A stretch of 64,000 nucleotides of DNA from an uncultured Planctomycetales bacterium (GTDB taxonomy: Bacteria > Omnitrophota > Gorgyraeia > Zapsychrales > JANLHA01): the NCBI GenBank assembly GCA_964374105.1, contig CAYJXI010000001.1, forward strand, positions 7,743-71,742, written 5' to 3'. Position numbers and translations under genes: made by a program. The notes beneath the pieces were generated by a model. The model did no database searches and was not told the origin of the DNA. It was given only the letters and a program-made list of their open reading frames with translations. Position 1 is the stretch's first letter, and every line of letters starts with the position of its first letter. This document shows positions 2 through 33,600 of the stretch, piece by piece.

Positions 2-660
2 GGGAAGGTCGCTGTGGAGACTGCCGTCATCATCGCCGGGCTAATGCTGGTCAACAAACATCTGCACAATAGATATGCTTTACAATTCATTTCGCTCGCC
101 GCCTTGACGCTGGCCATCTCCTTGATCCTGCACGGCGGTAATGTGATAATTCAGTTTGGTCAATTTGGGGATGTGTTGATTTGGAGAGTCCTTTCCGTCT
201 TTACCGGCACATTGATTTCCAGCCTGCTTTATGAGAAAGACAAGACTTTAGGTCAAAAGATTCTCTCCTCAATCCGCTGGACAGCGGCCATCAGCATTTT
301 GAGCGGGTACTACTTGTACTTTACATTTATTCCGTTCATTGGCGAGAGCTTCTCTGTGGAACGTTTCGGGGCAATCGCTTCCTACCTCAAATCGGCCTTC
401 GACCTGACGATCGGAAGTTTATTAACGATTCCGTTACAGGTCGCCTTTGGCGCGGCTTTGGGTGAGAAAAAGAATATTGTGACCCAGTGGGAAGAATTCA
501 AGACAACCGTCATAACGATTTATCCCATCAACTTCCTCTTCTGGTATCCGATGATGGTCATTGGTTGGTCCTTGTTCCCGGATGCATTCATTTTCAAGAA
601 TTATCATGCGGTTTTGGTGACCTTCTGGATGGGCATCCTTTCCCGCATTGTTAAGGTGTC
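2..660 (+). other. Cluster of ~6-7 predicted transmembrane helices
   Basis: Hydrophobic stretches such as VAVETAVIIAGLMLV, LQFISLAALTLAISLIL, VLIWRVLSVFTGTLISSLL, AAISILSGYYLYFTFIPFIG, ITIYPINFLFWYPMMVIGWSLF, AVLVTFWMGIL. Confidence 0.6.
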
Positions 661-9600: not shown

Positions 9601-12600
9601 TCGCGAAACCATTCATACTTACGCGACTTTGCAGTACACATTGGTTGACCATGTCTATCAGCGGGTTATCAATGATCAAGAGGTTTACCGAAGATTGAGG
9701 GACCTCAGCCAAAAGAAAGATCGATTTGAGGACTTTAATCAAGAGATCATTAAACTCGTTCATGAGGTGGTCAAGGAACTGAAATTAGGGATCACAAAGC
9801 GTGAGATTTACAATATCGCGGAAGATCTCTTCAGCTACGAAACGTATATGAGAAGAGAAAAAGGCCGCACTGATTCTGGAGCGAACCCCGCCCCATTTGA
9901 ACCAACACAAGACGAGAAGTCTAGGTATGAACCTTTAAGATTTTCCATGAAAGTCATTGATGGGGAAAAAGGCGAGGTCTCAGTTATAGAAGACGTTGTC
10001 CGATATTGGACACAAAAACATGCGGATGTCTTAAAAGACCTTTATGAACGAGTCGCTTATCTCGCCTTGGCTCCACCGGTTATTATTACCTCTGACTTTG
10101 ATAAGACAAGAGGTTCAATTGCCGCCTATAATTCCGCCGAAGGTGTCCTCTATATTCATCTTTTTGTCTTCGATAAGCTGGTTTCCATTAAGCATCTCAA
10201 CCTTATCGGTCGGTTTGGTCAACTCAATCATGAATATAAATCCGCCTTCTTAATGTTTTTAAAAGGAGTTATTGAAGGCCACGAGCGGTTCCATATCGAG
10301 GGCATTTTAGACGAAGGGTTAACCCGGCAAAAGACCATTCAATATCTCAGTCAATGGGAACATCGAGAGGTTCTTTTGGCCACTCGTCAAATTTTAATGG
10401 CTAAGAATATCTTTGGTGTTGAGACACAGGAAGATTTCTTTGTTACTATTCATGAGCTGGATGATTTCAGCCTTACCCGTCTGACGATTTTCGATAGTAC
10501 TCTAAGCGACTCCATCCACTGGGATTTCAGTCTGGAACTCCTGGCACAGAGAGAAGGCATCCCGGTTACCCATCTTAAGCAGAGGCTTAATGGCAAGACC
10601 ATAATGCTGGTTGGTATTAATAGTAACAGCATGATTGTTAACTTGGCGCGTCTATTGCCAGCGAGCTCAATCATTGTTGTCAACCCCGACAGCTCAATTA
10701 TTTCTGGTGAGGTCGCAAACGTCCGGTATATTCATGATGGCGTTGAAAACATCGCCCGGTACTCAGTTAACGGGGTTGATCTCATCTTCTCCTCCGGGCT
10801 CTTTAATGAGGATTATCCCGGGATCAAGCCGCAGCAATATCCGGCCTTTGCAAAGGCTATGAAGGAAAGTCTTGCTGCTAAGGGACTCATGCTCATTGGC
10901 ACTGGTCTTACGGGTAATGAAGTATTTGAGAAAGTTTTACGGACAGAAGATTTATTCGTAGAAAAATTATCTGAGATAGGAAGCTGGATATATCTGGTTA
11001 CAAAGCAAGATACAAGTGACAGTCACTCCCGCCAAGGCGGGATGACTGTCCTGCCTGCCGGCAGGCAGGTCACTTCTGGAACTCGAGTGGCATTTAAATT
11101 TATTAAAGGGCTGTTGCAGGCTTCGCTTGCTGTCATGCATGTTTTGGGGCAAGCGGTTCAACCAATGCGTCACCTACCGTGGCTGGTGAGGCGCATTGTC
11201 AAGAGTTATTCTGTAACAGCCCTTCCATCTATATTTAAGTTCTTAGCCAAGATGGCGGGTGTATTAGCCATACAAATAGTTGGCATGGGCGGCGGGAATA
11301 TCGGGGTGGTTTTGGTTATTACCACGCTGACATTCATTGTGCTTTGGGGAGGCTATAAAATTTCCAAGAATGTTAAACAATTCGTTGATCAGGAACGCCA
11401 ATACTTAACCAGACTCAAAGAATTGGCTGAAAGACTGAAAGAAATTGGTCAACGGATTCCTGAACTGGAAGAAAAAGCCAAGCGATTGTCCCCGGAAGCC
11501 CGAGATGCGGTGAAACAAGGACAGGAGAAAGTCTTAGCGGCCGTTGCCGGCGATCATTTTGAAGAGGCGTATGAGCTTCTTGAGCATTTATGGCAGACAA
11601 TCGAAGGTTATATGAACAATCTCATCGGCATTCCGGATGAATTGAAATATTTATTAAAGGAGCAGGAAGCGATTAACCAAAAAGGCAAGGCTATTGAGAA
11701 ACAACTTGTTTCCTTACGTAGCAGGGTTTCACGGTTCGTTGAATTCCTCTCTAGTCGCCTCCATAAACAACTGCGCCAGGAAGAGTCTGACCTTATTGTC
11801 AGCTGTTGTTATGCAACACTAACTTTTGATTTCGCGGTCCATGAAGCGGAATATCAAGCCGAAAGTACTTTGCGTGATATGACCTATGTTTTGAATTATC
11901 TTATCAGCGAATACACCCATGTCTTGAGAGAGAAAATGGAAGAAAGGAATGAGGTCGCTGTACTTTCCCCTGAGCAGATTGCACTCTATCACGAGCAGTA
12001 TATCGAGAAAAATATAAGACCAAAGATTGCCAGAGAAATCACGAGAGAAAAAATCAGTCCACAGAAGATTGACCAGCTTTTGGCCTATTTGAATGAATCG
12101 GCCGATCATATGGTCGAGGTTATGCCTCGAGGGGCGCCGGAAGAGGTACTTAAGAAAGCCAAAGAATTAAAGGCCAAGAGGAGCGCCATAGACAATTACA
12201 CATTAGAGGAAATTGCCCGAAGATTCGATTTCTGTAAGGCCTGCGCCCCCAATCAGGTTTATGGAAGGATCATCGCGGCGTCAGAACGGGTGGGTCAGTT
12301 TGAGAGAATTGTTCGCTTCAACCAGAGACTCTATGACTTAAGCGAAAAGATTGAATATATCGGCACAAAGGTCGGTGTTGATGTAAACCTTAAGCGTGGT
12401 TTTTCCAATCTTGAGCATACCTTCGGTTTGACGTCACCCCTGGAAGGCCTGGCCCGAGAAATTCTTTCCATAGATGATATTAAGCGCTGGAGGATTGTCA
12501 GAGACAGCGAACTGGCCAAGAAACGTTTTGGCGGGGAATTTTTAAGTCAAGTCAACGAGGCTTTGTTTAAGTTAATTGTCCATGACATCTTTGCCGAATC

Positions 12601-15600
12601 CGGCCACGATTCCTGGGAAAAGACCGCACGGGTAAGCCACTTGGGCGATTTACAGCATCCGGAGAGTATCGGTGCGTTATATTTGGTTTCCCTGCAGGGC
12701 GGGCACACCGCGGCCCACGCCATGGGGGTGTTATATGACCTATTAAGGGATGAGGAGTTCTTAAAAGTCCTGCCGGTGGCCATAAAAGAAAAGGTTCAGC
12801 CTTTGATCGATCGTTTTGCTCAAGCCGAACCGTTAGACCATTTTGACTTCTATACGATTGGCTGGAAGTATTTTGGTCTTGCCGAGGCGGCAGTTGTGCA
12901 GGGCTTAAGAAGCGATGACGCTAACTACCGTAAGCAGGCGATCGGCGCGGCTGAGGTTGCCCCGTATGAAGCTGATCTGCCTGAGCTCTTGAGTGAGGTT
13001 CGACGTCTTTTAAAGGAAGGATATGTTACCGATTTGACAAGATTCTTAGAGGATCGGATGGCTTCTCCCGTGGGTCCTGTGGTTGACATTGTTCGTCATT
13101 ATGTTCGTGATCAAAATGAGTTTAATGTCCATATTAGGCAGATCATTGAGATTGTGGCCTCGGCGGTCAACCGCTTCCGGGACACGCTCGAAAATCATCC
13201 CGAGATTCATAAGATGCACTTGGAAGAAAAACCAGACTATGTTGGTGTCATTGAGGAAAGAGAACAATTACAGAAAGAGTTAAACAAATATGTACCAGCT
13301 GTCATCAATCTTACTCCAGAACAGGCAGTGGTCCTTGATTTATCTTATGAGGAGGTTATGAAGACAACCGCTTCACTTCTTGTTTTGGGCAACGATGAGC
13401 GCTGCCGCAGTTGTCTTTTCGCCAACCTTGAATCAGGGGACTTATTTAAGAAAGAGGCCGCGGCCAAGGCGGTTGTGATGCCCCATAACCGAAAGATTGT
13501 TGGGCCAAAGGCCATGCTCCCGATCTTGAGAATTAAAGGTCAGACACAGGATCTTGAATTAGAGGGAGATATCCGTCTCTATCTGTCTGATGTCATCGAA
13601 GAGAACGAAGATTTTGCTCAAGAAGCAAGGCGTTATCTTAAAGAGACATATTTTGCCGGTTATCCGCCAGTGGCTGGATTTATCAATGCACTTGAAAATA
13701 GAAAGGCCTTAGTGAGGATCCTCGATGTCTTAGAAACGATGGGCGCGGAATCGTTCGTACAAATGGCTCTCAACCAAGAGAGGCTGGTGGAATGGTTGAG
13801 TCAGCAACTGGATTTATGGCTCGGGTTAATGGAGTTCAACACGATTTTGGGTGTCGTTTTGGGTAAGGAGGCGGCCTTAAATATCATTGAAGATATTATC
13901 AATGATATGAGGACATTTGCCGTTACCAGCTTGAAAGAAGTTCCTTATCGTCTGTTTATTATCCGTGAAGACAGACCGAATTTCTTTGTCTCGCTCATTG
14001 ACTATATCAGGGTGAGATTAACCCCGCGTAATCAAATAGTCGTGTTAAGAGAGCTAGGCCGATCGGCAGAGATGGTGATTAACATGGATACGACACCTGA
14101 TCAGCAGATTGTTCGCCAGAACTTTCATTTGGCGATTGTTATTTCTAAGATGTCAGCTTTGGCGTTTGGTGCCCAGTTTGTAGTGAATAGTGTCAAGGAG
14201 GCCACCGAACCCTTAGAGCGCTTGTTTGGTAAGGATGAAAAAGCCTCTCTGGTTGAATTACTGAAGGTCCTGCGTGAGATCCTGGAGAGATTGGATAAGG
14301 GAATCTATGCGGCTATCAATGAATTCATAGCCGATGTCCAAAGAGCGGTAGAGATTAGAGATGGTCTGTTGAAAGCCATTCAAGAATTACCCGCTGTGCG
14401 TGCGGCCCAGCAGCGCCGCAAGACCCTCGGCCAAGAGATCGGTCAACTGCGTAAGAGAATGAAAGAATTAAAAGAAGAAGGCCAGAAGCAAGAGTTAGAA
14501 AAGCAAATGGCTGGTTTGATTGACGAGCAGCGTTCCCATCAGGAAATTACCGATCAAGTAAATGCTGTCAATAAGGCTATAGATTTGACTTACCTTAGTT
14601 CTTTGAGTAATCAGCTGAAACAGAAATCTTCGTCGCTCGCCCAACAGGTTGAAAAAGAAGGTGTCTTAAGCATTAAGGGACGATTAGAGCAATATTTTGA
14701 ACTCTATCAAACCGAGGTCTTATTAAAAGAGTTGAGGGACGTCAATAGAAAGGTCATTACAACCTTCTTAAGTGAAGGGCAAGCAATACCTGTTGAATTA
14801 CCAAAAGATTATATCATCACCAATGAACTGAATAATCTGATTTTTGGCGCTTACCGGGCCAGAGAGGCCGAGGTCATTAGAGGAATCGTCCGGCCGATGG
14901 TGTGGACTTATATCTTTGAAGGACCGGCGGCCGTAGCAGAAAAGCTTTATTCACCACAAACCTTGGCACAACTTAAGGCTCTGGGTTATCAGAATCCGGA
15001 AGTCCTCAAAGAAGGATTAAGGATAAGAGGCGAGGTTGAGCCACCGGCTGATTTGTTGGCCGTCCGTCAGCACCGTTTGAATCTGGAAAAAGAAGAACTC
15101 CGTACACTTTTTGCCCAACTGCCGGTAGAGCTTGTCGAGTTGGCGAAAGAGGCTGGTGTAGAACTGGCTGAAGGCGAGGGAGTGGATCACTTTGCCCAGT
15201 TAGAGAGTGGTAGCTTGGAAAAGATTTATGCGGTTCTTAAGCCGTCAGAATTTACCGATTCTTACCAAGATGTCTTAGCTGATATTGAGACCCATATCGA
15301 GGCCATGAAACGCATCGAGGCAGAAATCGGTACGGCCACAGAAACCCGGCAGCCAGTGGATGTTATCGTTAGCAGCGATGTGGTGGAGAAGGTTAACATG
15401 GGTGTTGGGTTTGCTTCGTGTCTGTGCGTCTTAACCGGCGGCAACCGCCACAGCGCCTTTGTCAATGCCTTTGAACCCAATAAACTGGTCTTTTATGCAG
15501 TCAATAATAAGGGAACAAGGATCGGCCGGCTCTTAGTGATTCTCACCGATCAAGGATTGCTTGTCCACCGCGAATATAAGAGCACCACCTTGAATCTGGG

Positions 15601-18600
15601 ACCGGTCTGGTTTGAATTACTTACTCTCTTGGCGCAGAGATTGGGCAAGCAGGTATTGATCCCTGTTAAGGTGGCAGGCATGATCTTTGGTATAACAGAA
15701 AGTTTACAGGCTCAGCATATTCGGCCAATTGAATTGCCTGCTGAATTAAGCGTACTGCGTGTAGAGATGTTTAGATTTCCATCCAGGCTCTGGTATGACG
15801 ATCTTGGATTTACAAAGATTGATCTAGCTCAATCGTTTGAGCTGGAAGTATCCGGACAATTCTATATCTTCCCAGCGAAAAGGGATGATCAGCGCGAAGA
15901 TAATCCTGTGACTCCTGAGCCCACCGCCACAAGGTCGGGTGAACCGCTTTCAACAGAACAAGAAGACAAACTTCGGGAATACCTTAAACTCAAGGTAGGG
16001 CAGTTCAGCAGTTATGCGGACATTAAGGTAGACCAGATTGAGGCAACCATCAAGGCCTTGCGTGAGGCGGGCTTGAAAGCCTTGGCGAAGCGGCTGGAAG
16101 AACTCAAAGAAGCTCGTAAAATCCGCGCTGGGCCCAATGATGTTTTTGAGGAATTAAAGAATTTCGGCATTGATCTCTTGGCCTTCAACTTTAAAGACTG
16201 GATCATCATCCATCCGGAATTAGTAGAAACCCCCCATCGCATTCGCTTGCATCAAATCCTCACCCATGAGACAGCAGCAGTCCTTGGCTTCTCACATAAG
16301 ATTAACCTCATGTTTGAGAAGGTCATCACCAAAGAATTCACACAACAAGAACCAGGGTTTATTGATTTAGGTGAAAGAGAAAAGGTGTCTATCCCCGTTT
16401 CTGTAGTTGACAAAGTCGAGACTATCACTTTTAGAACTCAACCAGTTGGTTATCAAATCAAGAACAGACAGGTCATTCGGTTAGAGAATAGATTAAACCC
16501 GGATTTTGCATTGGCAAAATCCGCCCGAAGGGCCGCTACGGCATCCCGCCATGGCGGGACGCCTAGCGGGGTTAACCCCGCCAAAGGCGGCCGAAGGCAA
16601 AATTTGCAAAGCACTTTTCTGTATAGAAACAATCAACGAGGTCAAAGTCCTATTGCAAATTTTGGGTTAAAAGGCGATATGGCTAATGCTGTTCTCGGCA
16701 GAGGCAAGGGAGTCACTTTGTGGGAGGGCGGGGCTATCCAATGCAATTATTGTGTAATTTGGGATAGTTCAAGACGACAAGGGGCGATCATCCACACGAA
16801 TTATCTCCAATCCAAAGACATGATGGTGTCTTTCTTGAGAAATATTTTAGAGATATTAGGAATTCCATTAGAGGATAAGAGCTATTTAAGAGATCACGTT
16901 TTGACAATGATAGCTAATGCTCCTCACCAATCGGTCTTTGTCAGTGAGATGTCAAAGAGAATCGAAACCGTGCTGGCTGACAGCTTGGATGAATTAGGAT
17001 TGCCTCGGCTTAGGACGGATACCAGCGTTGCCTGGTATGTTACTCATATTCAATTTTTCGTAGATAAAGGAATAATACGATCAAGCTATAAGATTAACGA
17101 AAGGCAATTTTATCAAGTGGACTTAAAAGAATTGTCTAGATTGCGAAAAATGGGAAAAATGGGGACTGTCCCCATTTTTGAAGCCTCCGCGCCAATCTTC
17201 CGTGCCCTGCCTGCCGGCATAACAGGACCGCTTGAAGCCTTCGCTCCAATCTCCCGTGGCTCCCTGTACCACGTAGGGTACAGGGCCATGAACCCAACGT
17301 GGTTCATGGGGGTCATGAGAATTGTTTCCCAAACGACAGCGGCCCTTTTAAAATCTTCCGTGGCAGGCCCCGTAGAGAAACTTTACGGGGCAGGGAGGTC
17401 GCCGCAGATACCACTTGCACAAATCAAGGGACCGGTTATGCCTCACCATCCGTGGCAGGTGACGAGCATTCACCAGGGCCCATCTGCGGCGGCCTCTTCT
17501 TATCACAAGTCACAAGACATCCTTCGACTTCGCTTGGGACAAGCAAGTCAGCCCGCCCTGGTCTTCGCAACTGGCGGGCCAGGGAGGTCAGCCCGCCCCG
17601 GTCTTCGCAACTGGCGGGCCGGGGAGGTCAGCCCGCCCCGGTCTTCGCAACTGGCGGGCCGGGGAAGTCAGAAGACCCAAGATTCAGGACGCACAACGCA
17701 GAACACAGAACCCAAGACTCTGAACTCATTTGCACCTATCGTGATTGTGGGTTTAGGGATTGCAACGGTTGTCATCATCATGACGATCAAGGCTAAGAAT
17801 CGACTCATGAAGATAACCAAAGACTTTTTAAGTATTGCGACATTGATGGCCGTTGTTGGAAGTCTTTGGACGATTTGGATAAATCGTGAAAAAGAAGTTG
17901 AAGTGATTCCAAATACTCTTGATTCCCTCCCCCTTGTGGGGAGGGTTAGGGAGGGGGTGAGGTTACAGTCTTCACCCTCCCCTAGCCCCTCCCATCAATG
18001 GAGGGGAAATACAGGATTGGGAGAACAGGACGATTCAGCAAGAATTGTTTCGAGTGTCGGCCCAGAATTCTACAGAAGTGTCAGTGCCATACTCAACAAT
18101 TGGTTAGAGGAGAGAATGAAATATATTGTGATTGAATTAGCACCCAGAATGAGTCAAGAACAAACACGGAACCTCTTTCATCTCCTGAGGGCCATGCAGG
18201 AGGTCACAGAAACAAGTGGCTTGAATACACCTCTGCTGGGTGTAGATCGTATGGCCGTTGGCTTCCACGAAAGTGATCGTTTCAAAGCGAATCGTCAGTA
18301 TCGAGGGCCTGCCCGCGGGTGGCTGCAGGTGGAGAAGAATACCATTAAGCATGTGGTGGAAAATTTAATGCCTCGATATCCAACTCTTATTCCCATCGTT
18401 GTGAAAGAAGCCGCAGATTATCATAAGAGGGCAATGACCTTTAAAGATATTCAAAGATTAACGCCAGATGAACTCGGGGTGTTAGTCAGACAAAGGATTA
18501 AATTTGATGTGGCGGTTCATCTTGCTTACTTTATAGAGGAAATGAGTTTAGGTGTCAGGAGGTTAGCCACTCAACATGGTCTTCTCTTGGATCGAGAAAA

Positions 18601-21600
18601 TATTCCTGATTTCGAGGAAGGGTTGATCGAACGAGAAATCCGACAGTTAGTTAATGATAGCAACAATCCGCAAATCATAGACAAGATCTTGGAGGAAATG
18701 ACTAACCTGTGGCTTAACCAATGGAATCGAAAGCCGGGCGTCTTACAAAATCGGATTAATGAACAATCTCGATTGTCTCAAGAGATCCCATCTCTCAAAG
18801 AGAAGTTGGCAGATACGTTGAAAGACAAAAAAGATTTATTGATGCTTCGACCAGGCTCAGCATCAATCCTGAGCGAAGTCGAAGGATTGAGACTCTTTAA
18901 GACTCAAGCAACAAGCCCGAAAGAATTCTTATCATTCGCTGAACAGTTAATTCAACTGACTAAGGCTTCGGATGAACGTATTTCCCAATTACCCAGTGCG
19001 ATTAAGAAAGCCATCCGAACGATCATTAAAAAGGAAGAACGATTGAGCGAATTACCTGCCGAAATGGAAGAACTGAGAACCGAGATTAAGGCCTCCCAAG
19101 AGAAGTTTAGAAAAGAGATGAATGAACTTAAGCCGATCTTTAGATACATCTACATCGCGATGAGATTGCAGGTGATTTACAGCAAAGCTGTCCTTGCCTT
19201 GGAGAAGGATTCTCATCAATCCAATGCTACAAGCCAGGAGAAAAAGTCAGATAGCATCATTAGAGAAAAAATAAAATCTCAACCTAAGCCAGTTACAAAG
19301 AAAACCAATCGAAAAGGAAGATCATCCCTGAAGGCCATAAGTGAGGTTTATGGTCTAGTGCTTGTCGTAGGGCTTGTGATTTTAGGTGTGATAGAGCTCA
19401 TGCGACAAATCCAAGAGTCGCAATGGACCTTGGGTGAGCGGTTAAGACAAGTTCATCAAACAATAAAGAGACTCTTGCCTTTCCGTTGGATGGAAGTTGC
19501 AGGTTCAGGTGGCCTTTCTTTCCCGATGTTTATGGAAGGTATTTTAAACAGAGGAATAGGTGATAATCCATTTTTGATTCATGGCCGAGATGAACGATTA
19601 ATGCTGCCGGTATTTGAACAAATGGCGGATGCGCTTGAAGAACAATTGCTGGTAGCAAGTACAGATTTTCAATATTTGATTCACATTGTACAGAATGGGA
19701 AGAATAAAGAGAACCGTTTAAGGGCCTTAAAGACCTTGATTAAGATCCTGCTTGATCCCAACAAAGAACCTGCTTTGTTAAAGGCTGAGGGTCATCTCAA
19801 TGATAATGACAAACAAGCCTTAATCTCCACAAGGATTCATCAGGCCCTCTTTACTGTTATCAATACTGAAACTGATAAGGAAATTCAAAGATTGGCTTTG
19901 GAGGCGTGGGTTATTAATTCAATTGAATTGCTTGTGGAAAATCGTCATCAGGGGGATTCAGGGATTGTTCTCAATAGAATGTTACGCGAGGTCCTTGCCT
20001 TGAAGGTCGCCCGTTCTCAACAAGCCAATCTTGTCATGGAAGTCCTTGATGCCAAGATAAAACAATCCCCAGATAAGGACTCTCAAGAAGTTATTGAAAT
20101 GATGGATTGGCTAGAGAAGATCATCGAAAGAATCGATGATCTAGAAGAAGATGATGATATTGAATATCGAGGGTCATCGGGACTTAAGGCTTTTGGAACT
20201 GTCAGTATGATCATCCTTTTGGTGGGTTTAGGGACAATTTGGATTTACAAGAAATTTGCCCAAAACAAACACCCGGTGTTTGGCGGTGAACAAAACATAA
20301 GAGGTGAAGAAGTTTCTCGGAGAAAGGTATTCAAATGGATAGGATTAACCGCGGTAGCCATTGTTCTCAACTGCACAGGATGTTCACTAATCTGGCCACC
20401 CAAAGCACAGGATTTTGTACTTGTTAATTATGCGGTTGAGCCTCTCAACTGGGCTAAGATTACGGGGGATGCCCGAGTTGTCTTTTTGGGAGAGACCGAG
20501 CACTTTTCTTCAACCGATAAATATCTTGTTGCCAGATCTCTCAAAGAATTGAAGACATTAGGAATCACCCATTTGGCTCTGGAGAATTTGGAAGTTCATA
20601 CTCAGGATATTGTTGATGCGTATTTAAGAAAGGAAATTCCGTTATCCGAAATGGAGGAAAGGATCAGATCAAACCGGCTCCAAAGACCTAATGGGGAAAT
20701 TGTTTTACCGGCGATTTATCTGCCAGGATACAGAGAGATCTTCCAAAATGCCCAAGCATTAGGGATTAAAGTCATTGCCTTAGATAAACCTAAATATGAA
20801 GAACACACTATCCGGGAGCGTAATCTTCAGTGGGTAGAAATTATTTTGTCTATCCTTAAGAATGACAATAAGGCCAGGCTTTTAGTCATTAACGGCAATG
20901 CCCATTCGAATTATCAATATAGATTCCTAAGAAGAACAAACGCCTTTTATGCCATCCCCCAAGAGTTAACGCCAGTTGTCCCCGAGGCCATTCAAAACGA
21001 AGGCTTCCCAGTGGTCGTAACACAAATGGCAGGTATTGACGGCTCGGACCTCCCAAGCTATAGACATCTTATTATTGAGGCGGTAAAGAGATATGCTCAA
21101 GATGATAAGCGAGTAAAACTTGACCAGCCGCAGATGATGATTCCCCGCGAAGGGTTTGTTGATGAAATTTGCGATTGTTACATTTACGCCCCAGCCGTAA
21201 CGACTCTTAAAGCCTTTGACCCGGTGATCGGTTTGATTATGTTCCTTGGTATTGCCGGGTTGAGTTTATTGAAGAGGTCAAAGGTGAGGTCAAAGGTGAC
21301 TGTCACCTTTGGTGACAGTCACCTTTGGGCAAGGCGCTCGTTCCTAAGGACAGTCTTCGGGCTAGGGACAGCTTTAGGATTAATGCCATTTGCTCCAAAG
21401 AAAGCTCACGCAGAATTAACCGTTGATCAAAACCTGCCACCTGATCTGCGCCAGTTGTTTGAAATGGTAATCCCGATCGCACAAATCATGTTGACTAGGG
21501 AAATAAAAACAGAGGACCAGGAACTTAAAGAGCTCTCGAGAATTTCCCATCGATTCCTCTTAGAACCCGGCGTCAAGGTGACCTTTACCGTAGGTGATCT

Positions 21601-24600
21601 TAACCAAATCATCGCTAGTCAATCGAAAAACGAAGACGATGAGTATAGAAGAGAACTCATGAACCGACCCGATGCTGCCGCGCGGGCCATGGTGACCAGC
21701 TTAGGGGCCAATCGTTATGTTGTGACCTACGACTTTAGGATGATCAAGGCAGGGATGGCAGCCTTGATTACCGGGCTTGCTCATGAACTTATTGCTCACA
21801 CTTATATCATGGAGAATATGAAAGAAAAATTATCACCTCTGGAAGAGGAGAGACTCGCTTTTGCTTTGGAGATCAAATATATTGAGGTGCTGTTAGCCGA
21901 CCGCGATCTGGTTGAACAGATTACCTTGGGCGGCAGGAATTTAACGATCTACAACGATTTTAGAAATCTATTGGAATTTGAAAAAGCCACCCTGGCTTGG
22001 ATTGAAAAGGAAATAAAACAACAGAAGGCCGCGCAATTAAAGAAGACAATCGCCATCATTGGTGCAACAGCACTGACAGCGGGAGCAGGCGTCTTAGGGA
22101 CTTTACAGGTCATCAAGTTAAGAAGATTCAAGCGCGTTCGTCTCGTCTTTGATGCAATCAAGGGTCAAGGGGCATTTGCTCAATTGGATAAGCTTTTACG
22201 AAAACAATTAGTCGCCCAGTTTACAAAAGGTAATCGTTTCGAACGTGCGACCTTAAAGCAGGCCGGGCTGTCCACAACCCAGAGAGAAGAATTTAAAAAG
22301 AATTTATCCCGGATGATGAGTGAAGAGGAGGAAGACGAAGGGAATGAAGGCGGAGTGATGCTGGGAAGCGGGAGAGGCTTAAGTGCAGTGCAGGAGAAGA
22401 TGGTGAATCAGGCGCTGGTAGAGAGCGAGGTGAAGGAGGTCAGTGAGGAGGAGTACCGAACATTGGATGCGGGAGGCGAACTAAAGTCCGAAGGGGTGGT
22501 GATCCATAAGGTGAGCGGGTTGAATGCGAAGATCGAAGAGATCGGGCAAAGAGAACATACGATGTTTGGGGATGAGGTGGTGACGTATGCGAAGGTGAAG
22601 GAAGATGGGAGCAAGCATTTGTACTTGGATGAGCGGGAGATGTATGTGGTGATGAATCTGAGTGAGAGGTTAAGGAGGCAGTGGGGAAGTCATGAGTTAT
22701 TGCACTTAAAGCAGCCGATGCTGAGTGAAGAGCTGGTGCAGTTGCAGGTGCCAGTGGATGAGGTGTTAGAGGCGAGGGCGAAGTATCTGGGGTATGAGAC
22801 AGGAGAGGTGAAGGCCTTGGCTATAGTGAGGAAGGAAGGGGTGAAGGAGAAGGAAGTGAGTAGTGCGATGGCGGTGGCGAAGGAATATGGGGTAGTGCCA
22901 TCAAAGGTATTGGCGTTATCGAAGAAGCATGGACTGCCGGTGGTATTGACGGGCGAGGCGATGGGGCTTGCACAGAGGTATAAGACGACGATGAGTCAAG
23001 TAGCGTTGTGGGGCAAGAAGTATGTGGGGATTTTGAATAAGGCGGGGTTGAGCCGGGAAGAGATCGATGAGATCTGGCGGACGTTAGGGTATGAGCAGAA
23101 GGAAGAGGTGTTAGATGCGATCGAGAAGATATTAGAGATTCATCAGGAGATCGAAGAGAGTGAAGTAAAGTTTTCGATGAGTGTGATAGAGCTGGTGCGA
23201 GCGTATCGGGTGGTAGGGGATATGGATGAGCTGCGGGAGCTGGTGCGGATTGCGATCGAGCATCCGATGAGCGGGCGGGGATATGGGCAGGTAAAGCAGC
23301 GGTTCCCCGAGTATGCGAGATTTAAGAAGCTCTTGGAGATATGGGAGGAGTATGTGGAAGCGGGTCATCCGATCAGTGCCGAGATCATAGAACAGATGTT
23401 TGATAAGAAAGGGCGATCGCGGTGGGTGAGTGAGGAGGAGGAAGGTGAGGAAGAGGAATGGCATGAGGGCGGGGTGATGCTGGGAAGCGGGAGAGGCTTA
23501 AGTGCAGTGCAGGAGAAGATGGTGATGCAGGCGCTGGTAGAGAGCGAGGTGAAAGAGGTCAGTGAAGAGGAGTATGCTGCGTTGGATGTGGGAGGAGAGT
23601 TGAAGTCCGAAGGAGTGGTGATCCATAAGGTGAGCGGGTTGAATGCGAAGATCGAAGAGGTTGCCCAAAGGGAATGGACATCGTTTGGAGATCGGTTGAT
23701 CACGTATGCAAGAGTAGAAAAGGATGGCAGTAAGCACCTGTACCTGGATGAACGAGAACTGAACGTGATTATGTATTTACCATCCCGCATCCGTCAGCAA
23801 TGGGGCAAACATGAAATGGGTCATCTTAATCAACCATCTTTACCTGAAGAAAGGATACAGAAGGACGCTCCCATTGAGGAAGTCCTTAATTCACTAATCC
23901 ATCCAACTGAACCTATTGTCAAAGTATATGATGAACTCGGCGGGTTGAAGATATCAAGGAAAGATCAACTCTTTAAAGATAAAGAAGGAAAGAAGAGGCC
24001 GTATACCCGCAAGGGCCAGGTGTTACACACCTTCCATCTTGCTGTCCAAGAAGATTTGAAAGCAGTTATTGATCAGAAGATTCTACCTGCTCTCACTACA
24101 AAGAAAGCAAAAGCGAAGATAGAAGAAAATCTTCAGCTGATATTTAGACAGACCGGGGAATTTGGGAATATTAAAACGATCAGTATTTCCAACGGGATGT
24201 TGACCCCACTTTTCTTTGAAGAAGACCGCACTTACGTAGATGTGAGCCTGTTATTGATGCCTTCCGCTCCCTTTAAGGAATTATTGAGATTGGGTTCTGC
24301 CCATGCCTTTGAGAAGAGCCGAATATATCGGGTTCAGACGAGTAAAGGAAGCTTTATTGATGAGTATAAGGCCGATAGTGTGAGTGTGTTTGAAGTGGCT
24401 TTAAGTCTTCTAGCGGCGGATGAAAAAGTGCTTAAGCAACTGGAAGAGGCATTCAAGAATTTAAGCAAAGCTAATTGGGAACTTTCAGTTTATCAAGAGC
24501 TTATCGATGCCCTGCGGTATTTAAGAAGCCGCTTTGTCGTACAAAAGTATTTGTTAAAGGCACATAACATTTATGACATTTACGATTGGGAAATAGATCC

Positions 24601-27600
24601 ATTTCGGGATCGGTATGTGTTGAGTCAACAAAGAAAAGAGATATTAACCCGGGCGATCAAACTAAGAGAATCCTTACGAGATATTGTCGTAAGAAGAAAG
24701 AACATTATTTTGAGATTATTAGCCAATGATCCAAGATACATTGAAAAGAACAAAGAGAAAGAGAAAAAGAAAGAAAAAGAAAAGCGAAAAGCCATCAAAG
24801 AGCTTGCCCGCAGGAAATTCCTCTTACCCAGAAAAGCCGAGGTTGACCGGATAGCTCATCTGTGGGAAAGGCCGTATGAACAAATCGGCCAGGCCTTGAT
24901 TTCCTCAAGAAATCATCATTACTTGCAAATTATCCGATTAGTGCCCGCAGAGTTCATGCGGCTTTTGGGCATTCTTATCGATGCACGTTCTTTATCCAGT
25001 CATCTTCTTAAGAGCGGTTATACAAGGAAAGAGTTAAGCCAAGGATTTGGGATCTTCTTTAACCAAGTTGGAACAAGTCATGTCTCCATTGAAAGTCGGT
25101 ATAACGAGATGATGGCAGCCCTCATTTTATATCGCGGGGCTTTTAGCGAAGATCTCTTTAAGGAAATCTTTGCCCAACTGGAGGTTGCCGAAAGAAAGCA
25201 ATTGACGTCTTATTTAGGAGAACAGGTTTCGCGGGTCATTAACTATGAGAGAACTTATATGGGAATCATCAAATATCTTGCGATGTTCCCAGGAGCAACG
25301 GTAAAAGATTTGAAGGCTCAAGGATTATTTGCGGAATTGTTCGATCTGTTTATTAAGATTCACACAATGACCGTCCAGAAAGAAGAAGTCATTGAGCTGA
25401 CAGTCAAGGAAATGCGAATCAAGGCAAAGAAAGTCTTGATGACAAGACTTCTCTCCCGTTATGGTTGGGCCTTAGGGTTATTTTTAGCTCCGGGATCAAG
25501 GGTTGATAGAAACCAAGTGATCTCTTTTATTGGATATTACAAAGAACAAATTCACAGGATTGTCGATTTTTATCTTGACGGAACATTAGTGATGGATGAA
25601 ATGGTTTTAGAATCCATCAGTCATTTATTGCCTTACCTAGCCCTGGAAGGTTATGACAAGCGATTAGGGGTGGTGAGAAAGAAAGTCAAAGATTTTGGAT
25701 CACTTGAACGATTGTTTAGCGTGCCGTTGGAGTCCCCAAGTGAAACTTTAGCTGTAGAAAGGGCAGCGGTAAAAGCCATGTTAACCGCAGGGGATGAAGA
25801 GACGTTACGAAGGGTATTTAATGACTTGAAGAACTTCTATCAGACCCAGCGTAAACCAAAAGAAATCATTGCTGATTCCGCCATCGATTATGCCTTGGCC
25901 CTTATTCAGGGGGTACAAAAACTTTTACAAAAACCTGTCACTCAAGAACAACGGCAAATGGTCGCATCGATGGTAAAGGAGATTGCCTCTCATCTGATTC
26001 ATAAAGAGTTAACGATTACTTCAATACAAACTTCCATGGAAGAAAAGGCCAAACGGATCATCACCTCCATTCAGAATCTCCCTCAAGAGATTTTAACGGA
26101 AGCGCTGAAAGTGTTGACCGATCATACCATTCTTGATTTTATATTTTTCCGTGATGAAATGGCGGTTATCCGAACCGATGTGCTTAAAGTTGTTGATGCA
26201 GAAACCTTAAGTAATTATTTTTCAACCAAGAGCGAACGGGAGGTGACTTCAAGTCTTGCTCCTATCAAAGATAATATCTTGAAAAAGAAGGTTTTGGCTG
26301 CCATGAAGGCTACAGAAGTGGGTAAGATGCCCGCGATGGCCAAACATGTTTTAAGACGGGAAATTTACCTCAGGGAGACTATTCATTTACCCAAAGAGCT
26401 GACCGCTTATTCAGGGGAGGCTGTCCCGAATTATTACGCTATCTTAGGAGTTCCCATGAAAGCCACACCTTTGATGATAGACCGATCATTCAAGGCGCTT
26501 TCCTTCTTGTATCATCCTGACCGGGCTCAACCTTCTGAGAAGGCCAAGGCCGAAGAGGAGTTCAAACGGATCAATGAGGCTTACCAAGCGCTCTCTGATC
26601 CGCAGAGAAGGAAGGAATACGATGAGAGTATACCCAAGTATGCTTACTACTATCCGTCCAAGCCATGGTTAGAGTCGGATGTGGATCTGGATGCTCTCAT
26701 AGCCGAATCCGTGGTTTCGGAAAAGAAAGAAAAAGAAACGCCAAGCGAAGGTCAATACAAAACCAGTCCGTATCTTCCAGTCCGCTTGAGTGATCTTAAA
26801 AAATGGTCGAAAGCCTTGAGTGAAGATTTAGAAAAAGAAACTGGAGAAGCAAAAGAGCCCAAGAAAAACGAACCCCAAGGTCAAGGAGGGGCGATCCTTG
26901 CTTCAGGAAAGAGTTTGAGTGCTAAACAAGACTCGATTATCCGCAGGGTATTGAAGGAAGCTGAAATTGAGGGTACCGATATCATCGCATTTCGTATCCT
27001 TATTACCGAAAGTCCATTATCTGGAATGAATGTCAGAATCCAGGCCATCAAAGATTTCAATCTTAAGATCCGCCAATTGGCTGAGGAAGAGCAAGTGCCA
27101 TTTAAGGACAGAGTCGTGACCTACGCTTATGTAGATAAGTCAGGCGTAAAATATCTCTATTTAGATAAAATGGAGAGGGAGATGATCATTCATCTTCCTA
27201 AACATTTGCGTGATCAATGGGCAGAGCATGAAATGCTGCATCTTGAAAACCCAAGATTAACGGAAGAAGCAGTGCAAAAACGAGCTCCTATTGAAGAATT
27301 CTTGCGCGCCCTCTATCCTCCCGAAGAACCTACCATTAAAGTTTATGATCAGTTGGGAGGGTTGAAAATCACAAAGGTGTCATCGACGTTTACTGATATT
27401 GAAGGTGTAACGAAGGATGTTTCCTTCAAGGGTGAGGAGATCAGCACTTATCATGTTTCCTTAAGGCCAGATGATGCGAGGCATTTAACGAGAGACTTTG
27501 AGAAGATTTTACATCGTCGAATTAATAAACCCAGTTCGGAGAAGATAGGATGGAATTTTAATTTCTTGACGGGGGAGATCAGCCGGTTTGGTGCGATAGA

Positions 27601-30600
27601 CAATATCACAATCGCTTACGGAATGAAAACTCCGTTCTATTTGGAAGAAAGTCATATTTATATTGATTTTAGTGTGCTCTTTCTTACATCGGCAAATCTT
27701 AAGGCATTGTTCAGATGGTCTTGGCTTCATGCCTTTGAGAAAGCCCAAGTCTTCACCCAAGATGAATATTGGGCTGATGCGGTTGGTATCTTTGAGACTG
27801 CCTTAAAGCTCCTACAGGAAGAAAAATTAGAATCGTTAACATTCATAAAGCGGGCTCTCCGTGAATTGAAGATGATGGGCTGGGAGGTCACTGCCTATCA
27901 AAAATTATTTAGGGCGATTACTAATTTGAGAAAACGGGAAGATATCAAACAATACCTGTCCCTCCCCGCACATTTCAATCTCGGGGAATTGATCCCGCTT
28001 AATTTGTACCAATTGGCAAAGATTGAGAGGGCGAGTAGGTCCCAAGGAGAGCCTATTGTTCGAGCCGATAATTTAAGGAAAGCGTTAAACGAGATCCTGA
28101 AGAAACAAAATATCCTGTTGCCCTTGCTGGATCAGGATCCCAGATACACCAAGAGACCGCTCGAAGAAAAGGAGAAGATTTTAGGCCAACTCGCCGAACG
28201 GAAATTCCTGTGGCCTCGCAAGGCGGAAGGTTATTATCTATCTTCCCTTTTGGATCGGCCTTACGCAGAAACAGGACGAGCCTTGACCGCCACGGTTAAC
28301 ATCAACGTTCTTTGGACTGTCCGGATGGTTCCTTTAGAGTATCTGCGTCTGGGAGTTCATTTAAGAGAGGGTTCCCAAGTCGGCCAAGAACTCGTCAAAA
28401 TCAGTTCTACTCGATATGAGATTAACCAGTTCTTAAAAATTTTCTTTGTTGAGTCTAGTAAAAATTATCTGGTTTTCCCCGGGCATCACCGTTTTCATAT
28501 GAATAGTTTGGTGTTATTGAAGTCGGCGTTTGGAGAGGATATTGTGGATGAAATATTCGCCAAAAGAGATTTGAAACAGAGAATGGATTTACTCAAATTC
28601 TTTGAAGAATATCTTTTCATGATGCTTGTTGGCGATGAGAAGAAATACCTTAAGATCTTGCTTTATCTGTATGACAATCCGGGCATTGAATTTAAATATC
28701 TTCTAACGATTTTTGATGGGCGTCTAACACTTAAGTCATTGTTTGAACTCTTCAGTAGGCTTAACAATTCCGCTTTATCAACCGAATTTTCAACGGGAGG
28801 AAGTATCATCGCAACCGCAAGCCGCATTTTATTAAACAGGCTTATTTTCCGATACGGTTTAATTTTTAGTCATTATCTGACTACGGATATTGAGGTGGAT
28901 AAAAATGAGCTCAAGTTCATCTTGAGGAAAAACATTCCAGAATTCCGGCAGCTTCTTGAGTATTACCTTACAATGACAACTAGGGAGGACGAGACGACTA
29001 GGGAGGCCGTCAACAAGTTAGTGAACCTCTTATTGATCGAACCGGATTCATGGCTATTGGAAGAAGTGCGAGGAAGACTCAAACAGACACTGGATTTCAC
29101 CTCTGACTTTAGCCGAGTGTTTGCCATTTCCCTTGAAAGTACGGAACCGTTTTTAGGTTCTGAAAGGGCAGCGATCAAAACTCTGTTGGAGCTGGGAGAT
29201 TATGAAATGATAGTCACGATGTCAAGCAGATTGGAGAATTTTTACAGCATTCATCGACAGACAGCTCAACGTATTTCCGATCATGCAATTGATTATGCCC
29301 TCGCCCTTGTGGTGGGAGCTGTTCAATTGCTTAAGATTACAAAAGATAAGGCAAGGCGGTTAGTTGTCGAAGAAATCTTAAAACAAACAGTTTTGAATTT
29401 GGTGAATTATGAACTGAGCGAAGAAACAGTTTATGGACAAATAGCAGAGCGGGCTCAACGAATCATTAGAATTTTACAATTCATACCAGAAAAGGTATTC
29501 CAAGAAGCCCTCAAGGCATTGGCCCAGATGAGGATCTTAGATGTGATTTTCTTCCGTAAGGAAATGGCATCAGTCAGGGCCGATGTGCTTCGCATTTTAG
29601 ACGCGCAAGTCTTAAGCGCTTATTTCAGTCAAAAGAGCGAGAGGGAGGTTTATGCCAGCCTTACCGAGGTTAAAGATGCTCAATTAAAGCAGCGGGTATT
29701 GGCAGCGATGAGAAAGACAACGGGGGGAGGCATAAAGACCATGACCACTCATGTGCTAAGAAGAGAGATCTATATTAAGGCGATGATCGGCTTACCCAGA
29801 GAAATCACTAATTATTTTGGGGAAAAAGTTCCAAACTATTATGTTATTTTGGGTGTCCCGAGGCAAGCCACTTCAAAAGACATTGATCGATCTTTCAAGG
29901 CATTGGCCATGCTCTATCATCCTGACCGCGCCCCGGAACCGGAAAGGGCCCAGGCTCATCAGGAATTTAAAGTCATTAACGAGGCCTATCAAGTCCTATC
30001 TGATGCAGAGAAAAGACAGGATTATGAAAATAGCATACCCAAGTACGCCCATAGGTATCCCGCCAGTCCTTGGCTATCCGCGGATGTTGATTTGGACGCC
30101 ATTCTAGCCGAGGCAGAAGCTCTCATTAAACCCAAAGAGAAACCCGCTGAAGTTCAAAAAGAAAAGATAGAACAAAAGCCAATCGAGTATCCTCTTGTCT
30201 TAAGAAGCGATTTTTTAAGATGGCAAGACAGTTTGCGTTTCCTTAAAGAGGAAAAAGAAGAAAAGAAAGAAAAAGATACCGAAAACCAGACGCCGGGCCT
30301 ACCCGCAGGACAGGCAGGCACCAAGGGGACACAAAAAGGTGATCTGCCTGCCTCGAATAAGGCTGCGCCATTTACCGGGCCTGCCGGCCAGCAGGAAAGT
30401 CATCGAAAAGATGATTCTACCGCCACCCGCAGCGGTGAGCCGATGAGTGAAGAACAAGAAGGGAACTTCCGAAAATATCTTTCCGCAAAGGTCAAGGGAT
30501 TTAGCGGCTATAAAATTGTTGAGGAAGGTCACATTGAGGCAGTGATCAAGGCCCTGGCCGATGTTAGGCTGGAAGTCTTAGCCGATCGGTTAGGGCAGCT

Positions 30601-33600
30601 CAAAGAAACCCGAAAGATCCGCGCCGGGCCAGTTGAGATCTTTGTTGATCTTAAATCCCAAGGAATTGATTTACTGGCCTTTAATTATGAAGGCTGGATC
30701 GTTATCCATCCGGAATTGATTGAGGCCCCAGACCACCTCTACTTGGACCAAGTCCTCATTCACGAGACAGGTGCCGTCTATGGCCTTAAGCATAACATCA
30801 ATCTCATTTTACAGAAAGTCGTCACTGAGAGACTGACGGAAGAAGAATTCCAAATGATCGATAAGGCCATTAAAGAAAAAGAGAAAAAAGGTACTGACTA
30901 CGAGGGGGTTGCAAATCAAGATTATGCCAGGATGGCCCAGCAACTTAAGATGGCTCGGAATTCCTTAACCGCTCAGTTCCCCGAAGAATTCAAAGTAACG
31001 ATTCCGGGACTCAATGTCCAAGAAAGAGAAGCCTTCTATTCTAAGGCCCGCAGTAAGACATACGATGGATTTAGATATCTTACGCACGGGTTAACATGGA
31101 TAACCTTTGAACATGAACAATTCCCGCATCTTCTCTTTCATGTCTATAAGACAGATTATAATCTCGCCTTTATCTCTTCCATTCTTCGAATTAAACTAGC
31201 CCTTTATCTTTTAGGACAAAGGCAGGTTAAGGTTGACGGGATTGAGATGTTAGAGTTTACTGGCGAAGACTATCAATATGCTTTCTTCGATCAAGTGGTA
31301 ATAACGAAAAAACCAAGCACTATCGGTGACTTTGGAGAAGGGGTTACCGATTATGTGTCTTTGAAGCCGATTATCGATAATTTCCTGAAGGCTGCTGAGG
31401 CAAGGATGTTAAGAAAAATTGAGCCTCTGATGTTCGATGAGGCGGCAATCCGTAAAGTATTAGAAGACTATTTTGAGGTGAATTTCCCCGATACGAGTTC
31501 ATTGTATTTTGTTCTTCCAGCGGTCTATCAACAAGCGAAGGAAAACTGGGAAACCGAGGAAGAGGCTTTATTAAAGGTCTTAATGGCGGAGAAGTATCTG
31601 CAAGAGCAAAGTAAGAGACTCTATGTTCCATCCATCGATGAATCTGAAGCCGTCGCTAGTGAAGGAGAAACAGCAGAAAACGAAGAACATTTACCAAAGA
31701 TAGAAGAAGCCGTTCAACAGGAAATCGATCGGATGGATATTGAGAAAGGATTAAGTGAACAAGAGGCACAGAGATTGGTGGAAATTTTAAGGCAGTATCA
31801 CCATATCTCTATTAAGGCAGCAGAAAATGAGTTGGTTACATTCGGTTATTATGAAGATAAAGAAAAAAGTGGATTGAGGTTGGTGCGCACGATTATATCC
31901 CTTCAAGGACGCAGGGTAGGAGTTATCGATTTTATGATCGATCATGATGGAAGTCTTGCCAAAGCCGATTATGGATTCAAGCCACATTTTAAGAAGATGG
32001 AGCGGGATATGAGGCTTGAGGAGGTTCCGGAAAATCAGGATCTTGCTATTTATGTTGAACCAAGGTATCAAGGTTTAGGCATTGGCCGCACTCTGATGGG
32101 TCTGGCTTTAAGGATAGCGAGGCAATTAGGGGTTAAGGAATTCTCGTTACGAGATGTGTCCGTAGGTTTCGAGCCGAAAGCCGAGAAAATGGGTTTCAAG
32201 AAAAATGAACATTCGGGTCGTCTCAACGAATATTTCTGGCCTTTTGAAGAAAGAGAACTGCCTAGGATTCAGATGAAAATAAGCGGCAGGTCCCAGGCCC
32301 AGGGATTTGAGCCCAAGGGATCTATTCGCTCAAAACATCGCGGGGAAGTGGATTTAAGTGAAGAAGAGATGTCGAGGATCATGGCTAACCCACAGACTAA
32401 GGTCACCCAGAGATATAACAGAGAGTGGATTTTAAGAGTCATGGGTGCCTTGGAGGCCTTTGGCGGACAAACAACAGTTAACGGGGAACAGTTATTGAAT
32501 CGGATAAAGAAACGTATCGAAGAGGCGATACTGTTCTATGAGAAAGAGCGAGATCAATGGCAGAGGCAGTATGAGGCTACGATGGATCGAAGACAACGGG
32601 GATTGTATTTTAAGTATATGACAACCGCGGAAGGGATGATCAAAGAGCAAAGGGAACAAAAAGAGTTGTTAAAAGGCTTGTTTGCTGATGTCAGGAGTAT
32701 TTATCAAGTGGTCATCGACACCATTGGGAAGTTTAAGATTCATTCGGTGATATTACCGGAATCGGAACAATCTAAATTGATTAAAGGTCTTGATAGATAC
32801 ATCGTCATGTGGGTGAATCCTGGGGAAGATTCTATCGCTGAAATAGCCGGCCTTTTGGATTATTTAAGAACTCAGCCCCAGGGGATCCTGCTTGTCAGTG
32901 CAGCCTTAGGGCATGAGGCATTAGAATTTTATTTAAGAAAACAAGGGATCGAGGCTGATTTAGCCCATGCCTTGGCGGAAGATTTTGAGCGTATGATTCT
33001 TAAGGAAGACCTAGATACCCCCAAGAGTCAGTATGATTTGGCCATTGAAAGATTTTTGAATGAGAAAATATTGGGTGTTGTTGAGGTAGGGGCACGGCAT
33101 GCCGTGCCCCTACCTTTGACCAAGTCTGTAATTGCTGGGGATAGCTCGCCTCGTGCCGAGGACATCGGCGCTGTCATCGAACCAAAGACAGCCGAAGGTG
33201 AAGTAGTTATTGTGGAACCAGTTACTGCGGAAACGAAAATTGAAGAGAGGCCAAAGGAAGAAGCCGTTGAACAAAAGGCCTTAGAGGCAGAAGCAATTGA
33301 AGAACGAATTGAAAAGCCGGCTGTTACTGTTGAAGCCCCAACTCAAGAGCCAATCAAACCAAGTCATCAGCGCAAAGGGATTACTGAGGAGAGATTCTTA
33401 GAGGTTGCCTTGAATCATTTGGAGGATGAGAATCCGCGCGAGACCATTGCTCTTGAACTCGGGATTAATATTCAAACAGTTTCTTATTGGTTAAAGAAGC
33501 TGGGATTAGCTGGGGAAGTTATTGCAAAACGATTCAAGAAATCTGTAGCCGAGAAGGGAGAGAAGAAAGAACAGAAGAAGGAAGACCAGAAGGAAGGGGC

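Follow-up and report, generated by a model that had tools for sequence, protein, structure and literature searches.

A G-skewed, C-poor block bounded by repeat-homologous sequence within a giant bacterial reading frame

The stretch of DNA analyzed here, 64,000 nucleotides (nt) of contig CAYJXI010000001.1 and referred to below as the window, is part of one giant multi-domain gene: nucleotides 2..64000 of the plus strand form a single stop-free frame of 21,333 codons that is open at both ends, and open stretches in all remaining frames reach at most 210 codons. Within this gene we find a block of 450 codons (22310..23659, plus strand) whose coding strand is rich in G and poor in C. Both edges of the block fall in sequence that is homologous between repeated copies of a domain encoded by the same gene, and this is where edges left by recombination between repeats are expected. 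We interpret the block as a recombination-delimited mosaic cassette of strand-asymmetric composition within the giant gene, and assign this reading a probability of roughly 45%.

The edges were obtained from a log-likelihood scan in which the codon usage of the core is compared to that of the background. The block is the maximal-scoring segment with 225 nats, against 7.1 nats for the runner-up in the 64 kb. The fraction of codons ending in G (G3) is 0.585 in the block and 0.247 elsewhere, at the expense of C (C3 0.089 against 0.220) and T (T3 0.15 against 0.28), and this is the only stretch of the window where G3 exceeds 0.40 in windows of 100 codons. The GC skew, about 0.1 in the rest of the gene, takes values of 0.48 to 0.63 in all 300-nt windows between 22350 and 23699. 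Averaged over the block and compared with the background, G+C content is 0.531 against 0.444, GC skew 0.576 against 0.089, AT skew 0.182 against 0.076 and the purine fraction of the coding strand 0.696 against 0.541. The left edge is abrupt, whereas the right edge fades across approximately 100 nt past 23660. The block is the only compositional outlier of the window. A preliminary description of this DNA had already pointed to a G/A-rich outlier here and proposed scans of G+C content, skew and codon usage; these scans show that codon usage is indeed not uniform and that the contrast is stronger than was claimed. The right end has to be moved, however, from about 23760-23790 to about 23660, and the rest of the gene, which had been described as preferring A/T-ending codons, has nearly even third positions (A.25, C.22, G.25, T.28).

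At the four-fold degenerate sites of the block G is by far the preferred base, followed by A, T and, last, C, as is visible from the counts for GCG (21 of 28), GTG (39 of 51) and GGG (20 of 40) and from the scarcity of GTT (1), GCT (2), GGT (2), ACT (0) and CCT (0). Codon pairs that end in a purine move to G (AAG 33 against AAA 2, CAG 14 against CAA 2, GAG 51 against GAA 22), and those that end in a pyrimidine move to T (T:C counts of 11:0 for Asp, 6:0 for Asn, 10:1 for His and 13:2 for Tyr). Serine is encoded by AGY codons (Y, pyrimidine) in 79% of cases. The protein is affected as well: Glu, Val, Gly, Met and Trp are increased while Thr, Pro, Phe, Asn and Ile are decreased. The summed fraction of the five increased residues is 0.42 in the first domain of the block (HT copy A, see below) and 0.38 in the next copy B, whose head is itself G-skewed, compared to 0.20-0.32 in all other family members, including those from organisms with 56-60% G+C. 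The bias is thus a nucleotide-level pressure that reaches synonymous sites, six-fold codon choices and amino-acid composition, while residues that are invariant in the family are kept.

Several common sources of such a bias can be set aside. GC-biased gene conversion is ruled out because C-ending codons should then rise too, whereas pyrimidine-ending pairs go to T and C3 falls from.22 to.09. Hypermutation of the deaminase type (A to G plus C to T on one strand) is ruled out as well, since T3 drops from.28 to.15 and four-fold sites that are about 87% purine need transversions from pyrimidine to purine. Pausing at Shine-Dalgarno-like words or a CsrA-type GGA sponge was also considered and rejected: GGAGG (z -2.1) and GGA (z -2.6) are under-represented given the codon usage of the block. 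Polar words resembling Chi or KOPS were rejected too; words with a strand skew in the background are rich in A (for example GAAAAAG) and do not occur in the block. The skew is a property of base composition and not of motifs.

A composition of this kind might still be selected at the nucleic-acid level, with the mRNA or DNA kept purine-rich and C-poor for a local function. Candidate functions are slow decoding of G-ending codons during folding of the HExxH domain, an mRNA that does not pair with itself, a sense RNA onto which Rho cannot load, or termination of antisense transcription. In line with such a function, the bias overrides residue choice at variable positions, and the antisense strand (42% C, 11% G) resembles the Rho-loading sites, which are C-rich and G-poor. 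Folding is also 10-25 kcal/mol weaker than the G+C content of the block predicts, but in absolute terms it is unremarkable, with -28 to -32 kcal/mol per 150 nt compared to -34.7 +/- 8.1, and an island of unstructured RNA was rejected for that reason. Searches of the block gave no Rfam match and neither tandem repeats of note nor a surplus of sites resembling promoters or terminators, and the deficit of Shine-Dalgarno-like words also speaks against such a function. Moreover, the paralogous copies B and C and all homologues manage without the bias, and the right edge coincides with a recombination breakpoint rather than with a module or structural boundary. Taken together, we consider a local nucleic-acid function distinctly unlikely.

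The same composition explains three of the longest antisense open stretches of the window (minus strand, 22443-22820, 22824-23321 and 23368-23793). In both antisense frames concerned, each stop codon needs a pyrimidine at the sense third position, and third positions in the block are only 24% pyrimidine against 76% purine; this scarcity keeps the antisense frames open. Their products are low-complexity, rich in P, S, L and H, and without a Pfam match, so that the possibility of an antisense gene was rejected. The stretches are not genes but by-products of composition, the cause that the preliminary description had also named.

Encoded in the block are one HT-M module and, after it, 61 codons from the start of the next HT copy. 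HT denotes an HExxH domain of about 150 residues and M a helical region of about 205 residues (both names were coined in this analysis). Three HT copies are present in the window, all on the plus strand, and up to five in one homologue. Copy A (22337..22801, residues 7446-7600; hmmsearch E 3e-84) is wholly G-skewed and carries its HELLH motif at 22691-22705. Copy B (23456..23920, residues 7819-7973) is the first domain of a larger unit, HT-body-DnaJ unit 1, and has normal composition past approximately 23660. Copy C (26873..27337, residues 8958-9112), an old paralogue of normal composition, is the first domain of unit 2. Between copies A and B lies the G-skewed, all-helical M region (22802..23416, residues 7601-7805 approximately), which is colinear with the M regions of the homologues P0001, P0003, P0004, P0005 and P0010. 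A linker motif of the form KK..SR..SEEEE precedes all three copies. Before copy A it reads EFKKNLSRMMSEEEEDEGNEGG (22283..22354, plus strand); the left edge of the block at 22310 falls inside this linker, where the direct repeats D2 and D3 are also found. Before copy B it is acidic and G-skewed and reads SRWVSEEEEGEEEEWHEGG (23417..23473, plus strand).

In a full HMMER search against 1.84 billion representative sequences, 12 relatives of the block protein were found at about 30% identity, most of them matching the first ~150 residues. HT recurs in multi-domain proteins of metagenome-assembled genomes (MAGs) of Omnitrophota and Chlamydiota. Among 19 HT sequences H119, H123 and E131 are invariant and E120 is nearly so, which constitutes an HExxH...E motif, and each HT copy is preceded by a conserved G-G-x-x-x-S-G-x-G-L segment. 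The domain has no match in Pfam and no sequence match in the PDB. An AlphaFold2 model of copy A reaches a predicted local distance difference test score (pLDDT) of 95; its best structural matches are the minigluzincin selecase (E 0.08) and Ste24, neither of which is significant. HT probably represents an undescribed family of zincin-like metallopeptidases, and it may be a candidate for a protease that processes a polyprotein. The M region is modeled entirely as helices (pLDDT 84), and a fold search with this model gave no match. A visual impression of helix-turn-helix (HTH) repeats in M was unconfirmed and was set aside; Pfam HTH matches are on record only for P0002.

One homologue of 2,773 residues, encoded at 1897-10218 of a JGI 3300000571 contig (L003), carries five HT domains together with repeated Pfam matches to HTH domains of the XRE type. 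These matches may lie between its HT domains. If they do fill the spacers, the partner region of HT would be exchangeable between lineages, and the pairing would presumably recall metalloprotease-XRE pairs such as ImmA/ImmR.

Despite its composition, copy A keeps all positions that are conserved in the family. Its identity to outgroups (28-35%) is similar to that of copy B (25-36%); since copy A is no farther from the outgroups than copy B, it follows that the codons were recoded gradually, while purifying selection acted on the protein. These observations also bear on the possibility that the block is an artefact, either an assembly chimera, with a change at conserved sequence from one of two related templates to the other, or an error in the consensus. 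Assemblers can indeed change template where sequence is repeated or homologous, and both edges lie in such sequence, but the frame is open across both of them, all family-invariant residues are kept, the model of copy A scores a pLDDT of 95 and the module sits where homologues have it. A chimera would in addition still need a real template of such composition. An artefact is therefore very improbable.

The relation between copies A and B is best described as a direct repeat with a spacing of 1110 nt in the acidic linker and 1119 nt beyond it. Identity between the two falls in steps, from 0.90 (22343-22534) over 0.63 (22535-22670) to 0.48 (22671-22780). The preliminary description had reported a duplication of 22346-22670 at 23467-23790. 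The repeat itself is real, although its two copies lie 1119 nt apart (1110 nt in the linker) instead of 1121, and the identity of 85-90% given for 22346-22670 amounts in fact to a non-uniform 79%. The first step corresponds to a putative recent gene-conversion tract (23416..23656, plus strand), comprising the linker and the first 61 codons of copy B, which is about 90% identical to 22306-22537. This youngest A/B tract, roughly 245 nt long, ends at 23656, which is where the block has its right edge (23659).

The grouping of the three copies shifts along the domain. Informative sites group A with B in 40 cases and B with C in none for codons 0-61, in 12 against 4 cases for codons 61-100, and in 4 against 8 cases for codons 100-145. 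Where A and B share a residue the codon is identical at 48 of 55 sites, then 12 of 25 and finally 3 of 19 along HT. For B and C the opposite is seen: identical codons account for 5 of 17 and 5 of 18 such sites farther upstream, compared to 13 of 22 in codons 100-145. In the latter region (23774-23908 against 27191-27325), where the DNA has normal composition, a further conversion seems to have taken place, this time between units 1 and 2. Stepped identity combined with a shifting grouping is the signature of nested gene-conversion tracts, as judged from sequence comparison, with A/B exchange at the 5' part of the domain and B/C exchange at the 3' part.

This pattern also bears on the origin that was first proposed for the segment, namely a recent tandem segmental duplication that supplied an extra partial N-terminal copy, with the odd composition as a mark of the expansion. 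The direct repeat, its 1110/1119-nt spacing and the 90% identity of its first ~190 nt would fit such an event. A recent duplication, however, would yield uniform rather than stepped identity, copy B groups with copy C and not with copy A past codon 100, and duplication alone cannot alter base composition. Furthermore, the arrangement is conserved in P0003 and P0010, distant stand-alone proteins of other organisms. P0010 is colinear with residues 7447-8159 and 8552-8917 of the giant frame (E 8e-24 and 6e-13) and P0003 with residues 7449-7957 and 8552-8917 (E 8e-36 and 3e-24), from which it follows that the order HT-M then HT-body-DnaJ is ancestral. We regard the duplication as highly improbable.

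The number of HT-M modules differs between lineages. P0001, a protein from Candidatus Omnitrophota, has four of them in tandem; P0013, J domain-containing by annotation, is encoded on the same contig. This 35-kb contig (JBHPKB010000008.1, from a Candidatus Omnitrophota MAG; loci L001 and L007) carries the same upstream genes at both ends in inverted orientation, and its ends share the first ~1,800 codons of the HT-M array gene (P0001 against P0013). The inverted ends are either a palindrome produced in assembly or a genuine inverted duplication.

The skewed composition is not a family-wide trait: this candidate was rejected as the homologue genes (L001-L005 and L007, including that of P0013) show G3 values of 0.12-0.52, GC skews of -0.19 to +0.27 and no island. 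We subsequently consider a single import, in which a fragment of the homologous gene of another lineage, or of a paralogue that acquired its composition elsewhere, took the place of the native HT-M module and the beginning of copy B by homologous recombination and is now decaying passively with a composition that has no function here. This explanation implies that the two heads were already alike in the donor, and tandem HT-M arrays with similar heads do occur in the family (P0001). It also fits with two sharp edges in sequence homologous to the flanks, and with a dinucleotide signature whose distance (delta) from the host background is 0.15-0.22, exceeding any host window (at most 0.11-0.12). 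Yet the signature is equally far from that of organisms bearing homologues (delta 0.17-0.26); because the block is an outlier against everything, the signature does not discriminate and was dropped as a means of telling a native from a foreign origin.

Neither a donor nor a close relative was found in protein sets of 5.8 billion (word-indexed search) and 1.84 billion sequences, in GTDB genomes, in JGI metagenomes (exact 53-mer and profile searches), in viral contigs, or by tblastn in phages and plasmids. Over all collections searched, the best relative has at most about 38% protein identity and none is found at the DNA level. We know of no genome in which G3 is near 0.58 while C3 is near 0.09, so that a foreign import merely relocates the question to the donor.

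Two further observations concern residence. GATC is over-represented in host and block alike: it occurs 6.4 times per kb in the window against ~3.7 expected from base composition, and the C-poor block contains 13 sites where base composition predicts 3.4 and synonymous shuffles give 8.6-8.8. Most ATC codons for Ile in the block are located in GATC. The excess hints at Dam-type methylation or at selection for GATC. In addition, where the two G-skewed heads differ, G-ending and non-G-ending codons are in balance, without the one-sided loss of G that passive decay would produce; synonymous differences between A and B cannot be polarized with copy C, as these sites are saturated. Both observations are weak hints in favor of residence in this or a similar genome. 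On balance a single import seems rather unlikely. If it were nonetheless the whole story, the block would be a curiosity from a donor of unprecedented composition.

We therefore return to the mosaic cassette, for which the following course of events may be envisaged. The HT copies of the giant gene would evolve in concert through gene conversion, between A and B at the 5' part and between B and C at the 3' part. In the latest conversion from A to B, G-skewed DNA would have entered copy B over a length of 61 codons, which fixed the right boundary. The skew itself would have arisen, or would be upheld, in the HT-M module, be it at this site or in exchanging G-skewed paralogues outside the window. 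The block might then work like the cassette region of Borrelia vlsE, which is compared below.

A number of observations weigh against this interpretation. The only second G-skewed copy in the 64-kb window is the head of copy B, of 229-346 nt and 81-89% identity, and a set of exchanging cassettes is accordingly not shown. The evidence is a single sequence, from which ongoing exchange cannot be read. Copy B codons 61-100 (23657..23773, plus strand) have an intermediate identity to copy A and might form an older conversion tract, but this is based on small counts (12 against 4); G3 (0.36) and the purine fraction at third positions (0.64) rank among the highest 8-9% of background windows, a difference that is not significant, and copy C has similar values in this region. 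That this tract reflects an early conversion from A to B which has since decayed, while A stayed G-rich, is suggestive at most. Runs of G are fewer than expected, with GGG (z -3.5) and GGGG (z -3.7) under-represented against synonymous shuffles of the block. G-quadruplex (G4) or R-loop initiation motifs were accordingly rejected as a cause, given one canonical G4 motif and two G-cluster initiation sites in the 1.35 kb, and the usual mechanism proposed for vls is unsupported here. Finally, the third positions of vls are rich in G+T (T3.47) whereas those of the block are poor in T (T3.15), and the protein of the block (HExxH plus helical, with homologues of its own and no Pfam match) is unrelated to VlsE.

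Even so, repeated modules of a giant bacterial gene appear to exchange sequence internally, which bears on the growth of such genes, on read assembly and on annotation. At least ten unrelated Pfam families occur along the 21,333 or more codons of the present gene; domains strewn along the frame include HATPase_c, cytidylyltransferase, PRK, ChaN, two DnaJ, GNAT, NAD-epimerase, ribulose-phosphate epimerase, PP2C and GT5. Cysteine is very rare (16 of 21,333 residues, or 0.075%). Units 1 and 2 (23477-26893 and 26894-30301) are two old paralogues of about 1,140 residues each that are 30-47% identical. Both have an HT domain at the start and a DnaJ (J) domain at the end, a layout also seen in the stand-alone proteins P0003 and P0010. 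The J domains (Pfam PF00226, plus strand) are located at 26429..26623 in unit 1 (E 2e-19) and at 29834..30028 in unit 2 (E 4e-21).

Other internal repeat families are more diverged (22-68% identity) and comprise residues 197-416, 2289-2486 and 3249-3493, residues 1356-1497 and 1904-2056, and a further family at residues 5241-5461, 10059-10293, 11439-11599 and 13100-13305. HE[LR]FH motifs are present in some of the internal repeats (residues 1443, 2002, 2422 and 3427). The last ~4,000 residues (17445-21323) are a run of weakly similar units of 700 residues. A hydrophobic run of at least 19 residues from residue 7349, probably transmembrane, is encoded at 22046..22117 (plus strand), about 65 codons upstream of the block and in DNA of normal composition. 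The region 17250-17850 has a raised G+C content (0.56-0.63 against ~0.44) without strand skew. It encodes a low-complexity linker rich in P, G, S, A and R that directly precedes a hydrophobic segment, and it opens an alternative-frame open reading frame at 17299-17796 (plus strand).

Regarding known systems, the gene as a whole is reminiscent of the archaeovorins, giant multi-enzyme proteins of Omnitrophota (bioRxiv 10.1101/2023.11.21.568195 and 10.64898/2026.06.07.730766). The likeness concerns a frame of more than 21,000 codons, many unrelated enzyme domains and hydrophobic segments, and also the closest named HT-M homologue, which comes from a Candidatus Omnitrophota MAG. In a term search of these papers codon usage and purine did not occur, and skew, in the mentions displayed, refers to whole-genome GC skew.

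The block itself can be compared to mosaic genes that originate from recombination with diverged alleles, such as the pneumococcal pbp genes and Neisseria penA. These share with the block the sharp edges in homologous sequence, a frame that is kept and a replacement by the same domain. Their donors can be identified, however, and differ little in composition, while the block is without a known donor. Concerted evolution of tandem protein repeats likewise shows stepped identity, a switching topology (here A/B and B/C) and a variable copy number (here of HT-M), but ordinarily it homogenizes sequence and does not produce a strand-asymmetric composition.

The composition finds its closest counterpart in the vls system of Borrelia burgdorferi. 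According to a 2024 meta-analysis the G+C content is ~49% in the vls cassettes and 28.6% in the chromosome, and the GC skew of the coding strand ~0.52 compared to 0.18, a combination that was called unique to vls and probably important for gene conversion of vlsE (PMC11499132). Computed here on lp28-1 of strain B31, the silent cassettes have a G+C content of 0.494, a GC skew of 0.555 and a purine fraction of 0.65, with third positions of G.385, T.475, A.12 and C.02; the skew of vlsE steps inside the gene from near 0 to 0.45-0.6. The block and vls thus have in common a raised G+C content, a strong coding-strand GC skew (0.576 for the block against 0.555 for the B31 silent cassettes) and sharp intragenic edges of composition together with evidence of gene conversion. 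In both, C is avoided almost completely at third positions and AAG, GAG, CAG, TTG/CTG, AGY for Ser, GAT and AAT are preferred. Of the bacterial coding regions compared, the cassette region of vlsE would be the only one to combine raised G+C, a skew of ~0.55 and sharp intragenic edges.

The proportion of G found in runs of three or more, 22% in the block, is close to the 25-27% of the vls cassettes, though fewer than shuffles predict (z -3.5). The two differ in other respects. An array of ~90%-identical silent cassettes, as in vls, is not seen within the 64-kb window, and the host is another one, the nearest homologues of the block being from Omnitrophota and Chlamydiota MAGs. One could go further and see in the block the cassette that is expressed in a programmed recombination system of the vls kind, housed in a giant protein that probably belongs to Omnitrophota or another member of the Planctomycetes-Verrucomicrobia-Chlamydiae (PVC) group, with G-skewed HT-M cassettes elsewhere in the genome as donors whose segments reach this site by gene conversion. 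We see only a slim chance that this is the case. If true, a metalloprotease-like module would be varied, the skew would be a shared and selected hallmark of recombination-proficient cassettes, and the vls design would have a second, independent origin.

In conclusion, the block is not classifiable as a vls-type system but, by analogy, may work like one. It would represent a second, unrelated case of raised G+C with a coding-strand skew above 0.5, located at a gene-conversion breakpoint. Should the link with recombination be true, the comparison with vls would narrow the role of the skew to base composition itself rather than G-quadruplex motifs, as the block has neither an excess of G-runs nor the T-enrichment of the Borrelia cassettes.

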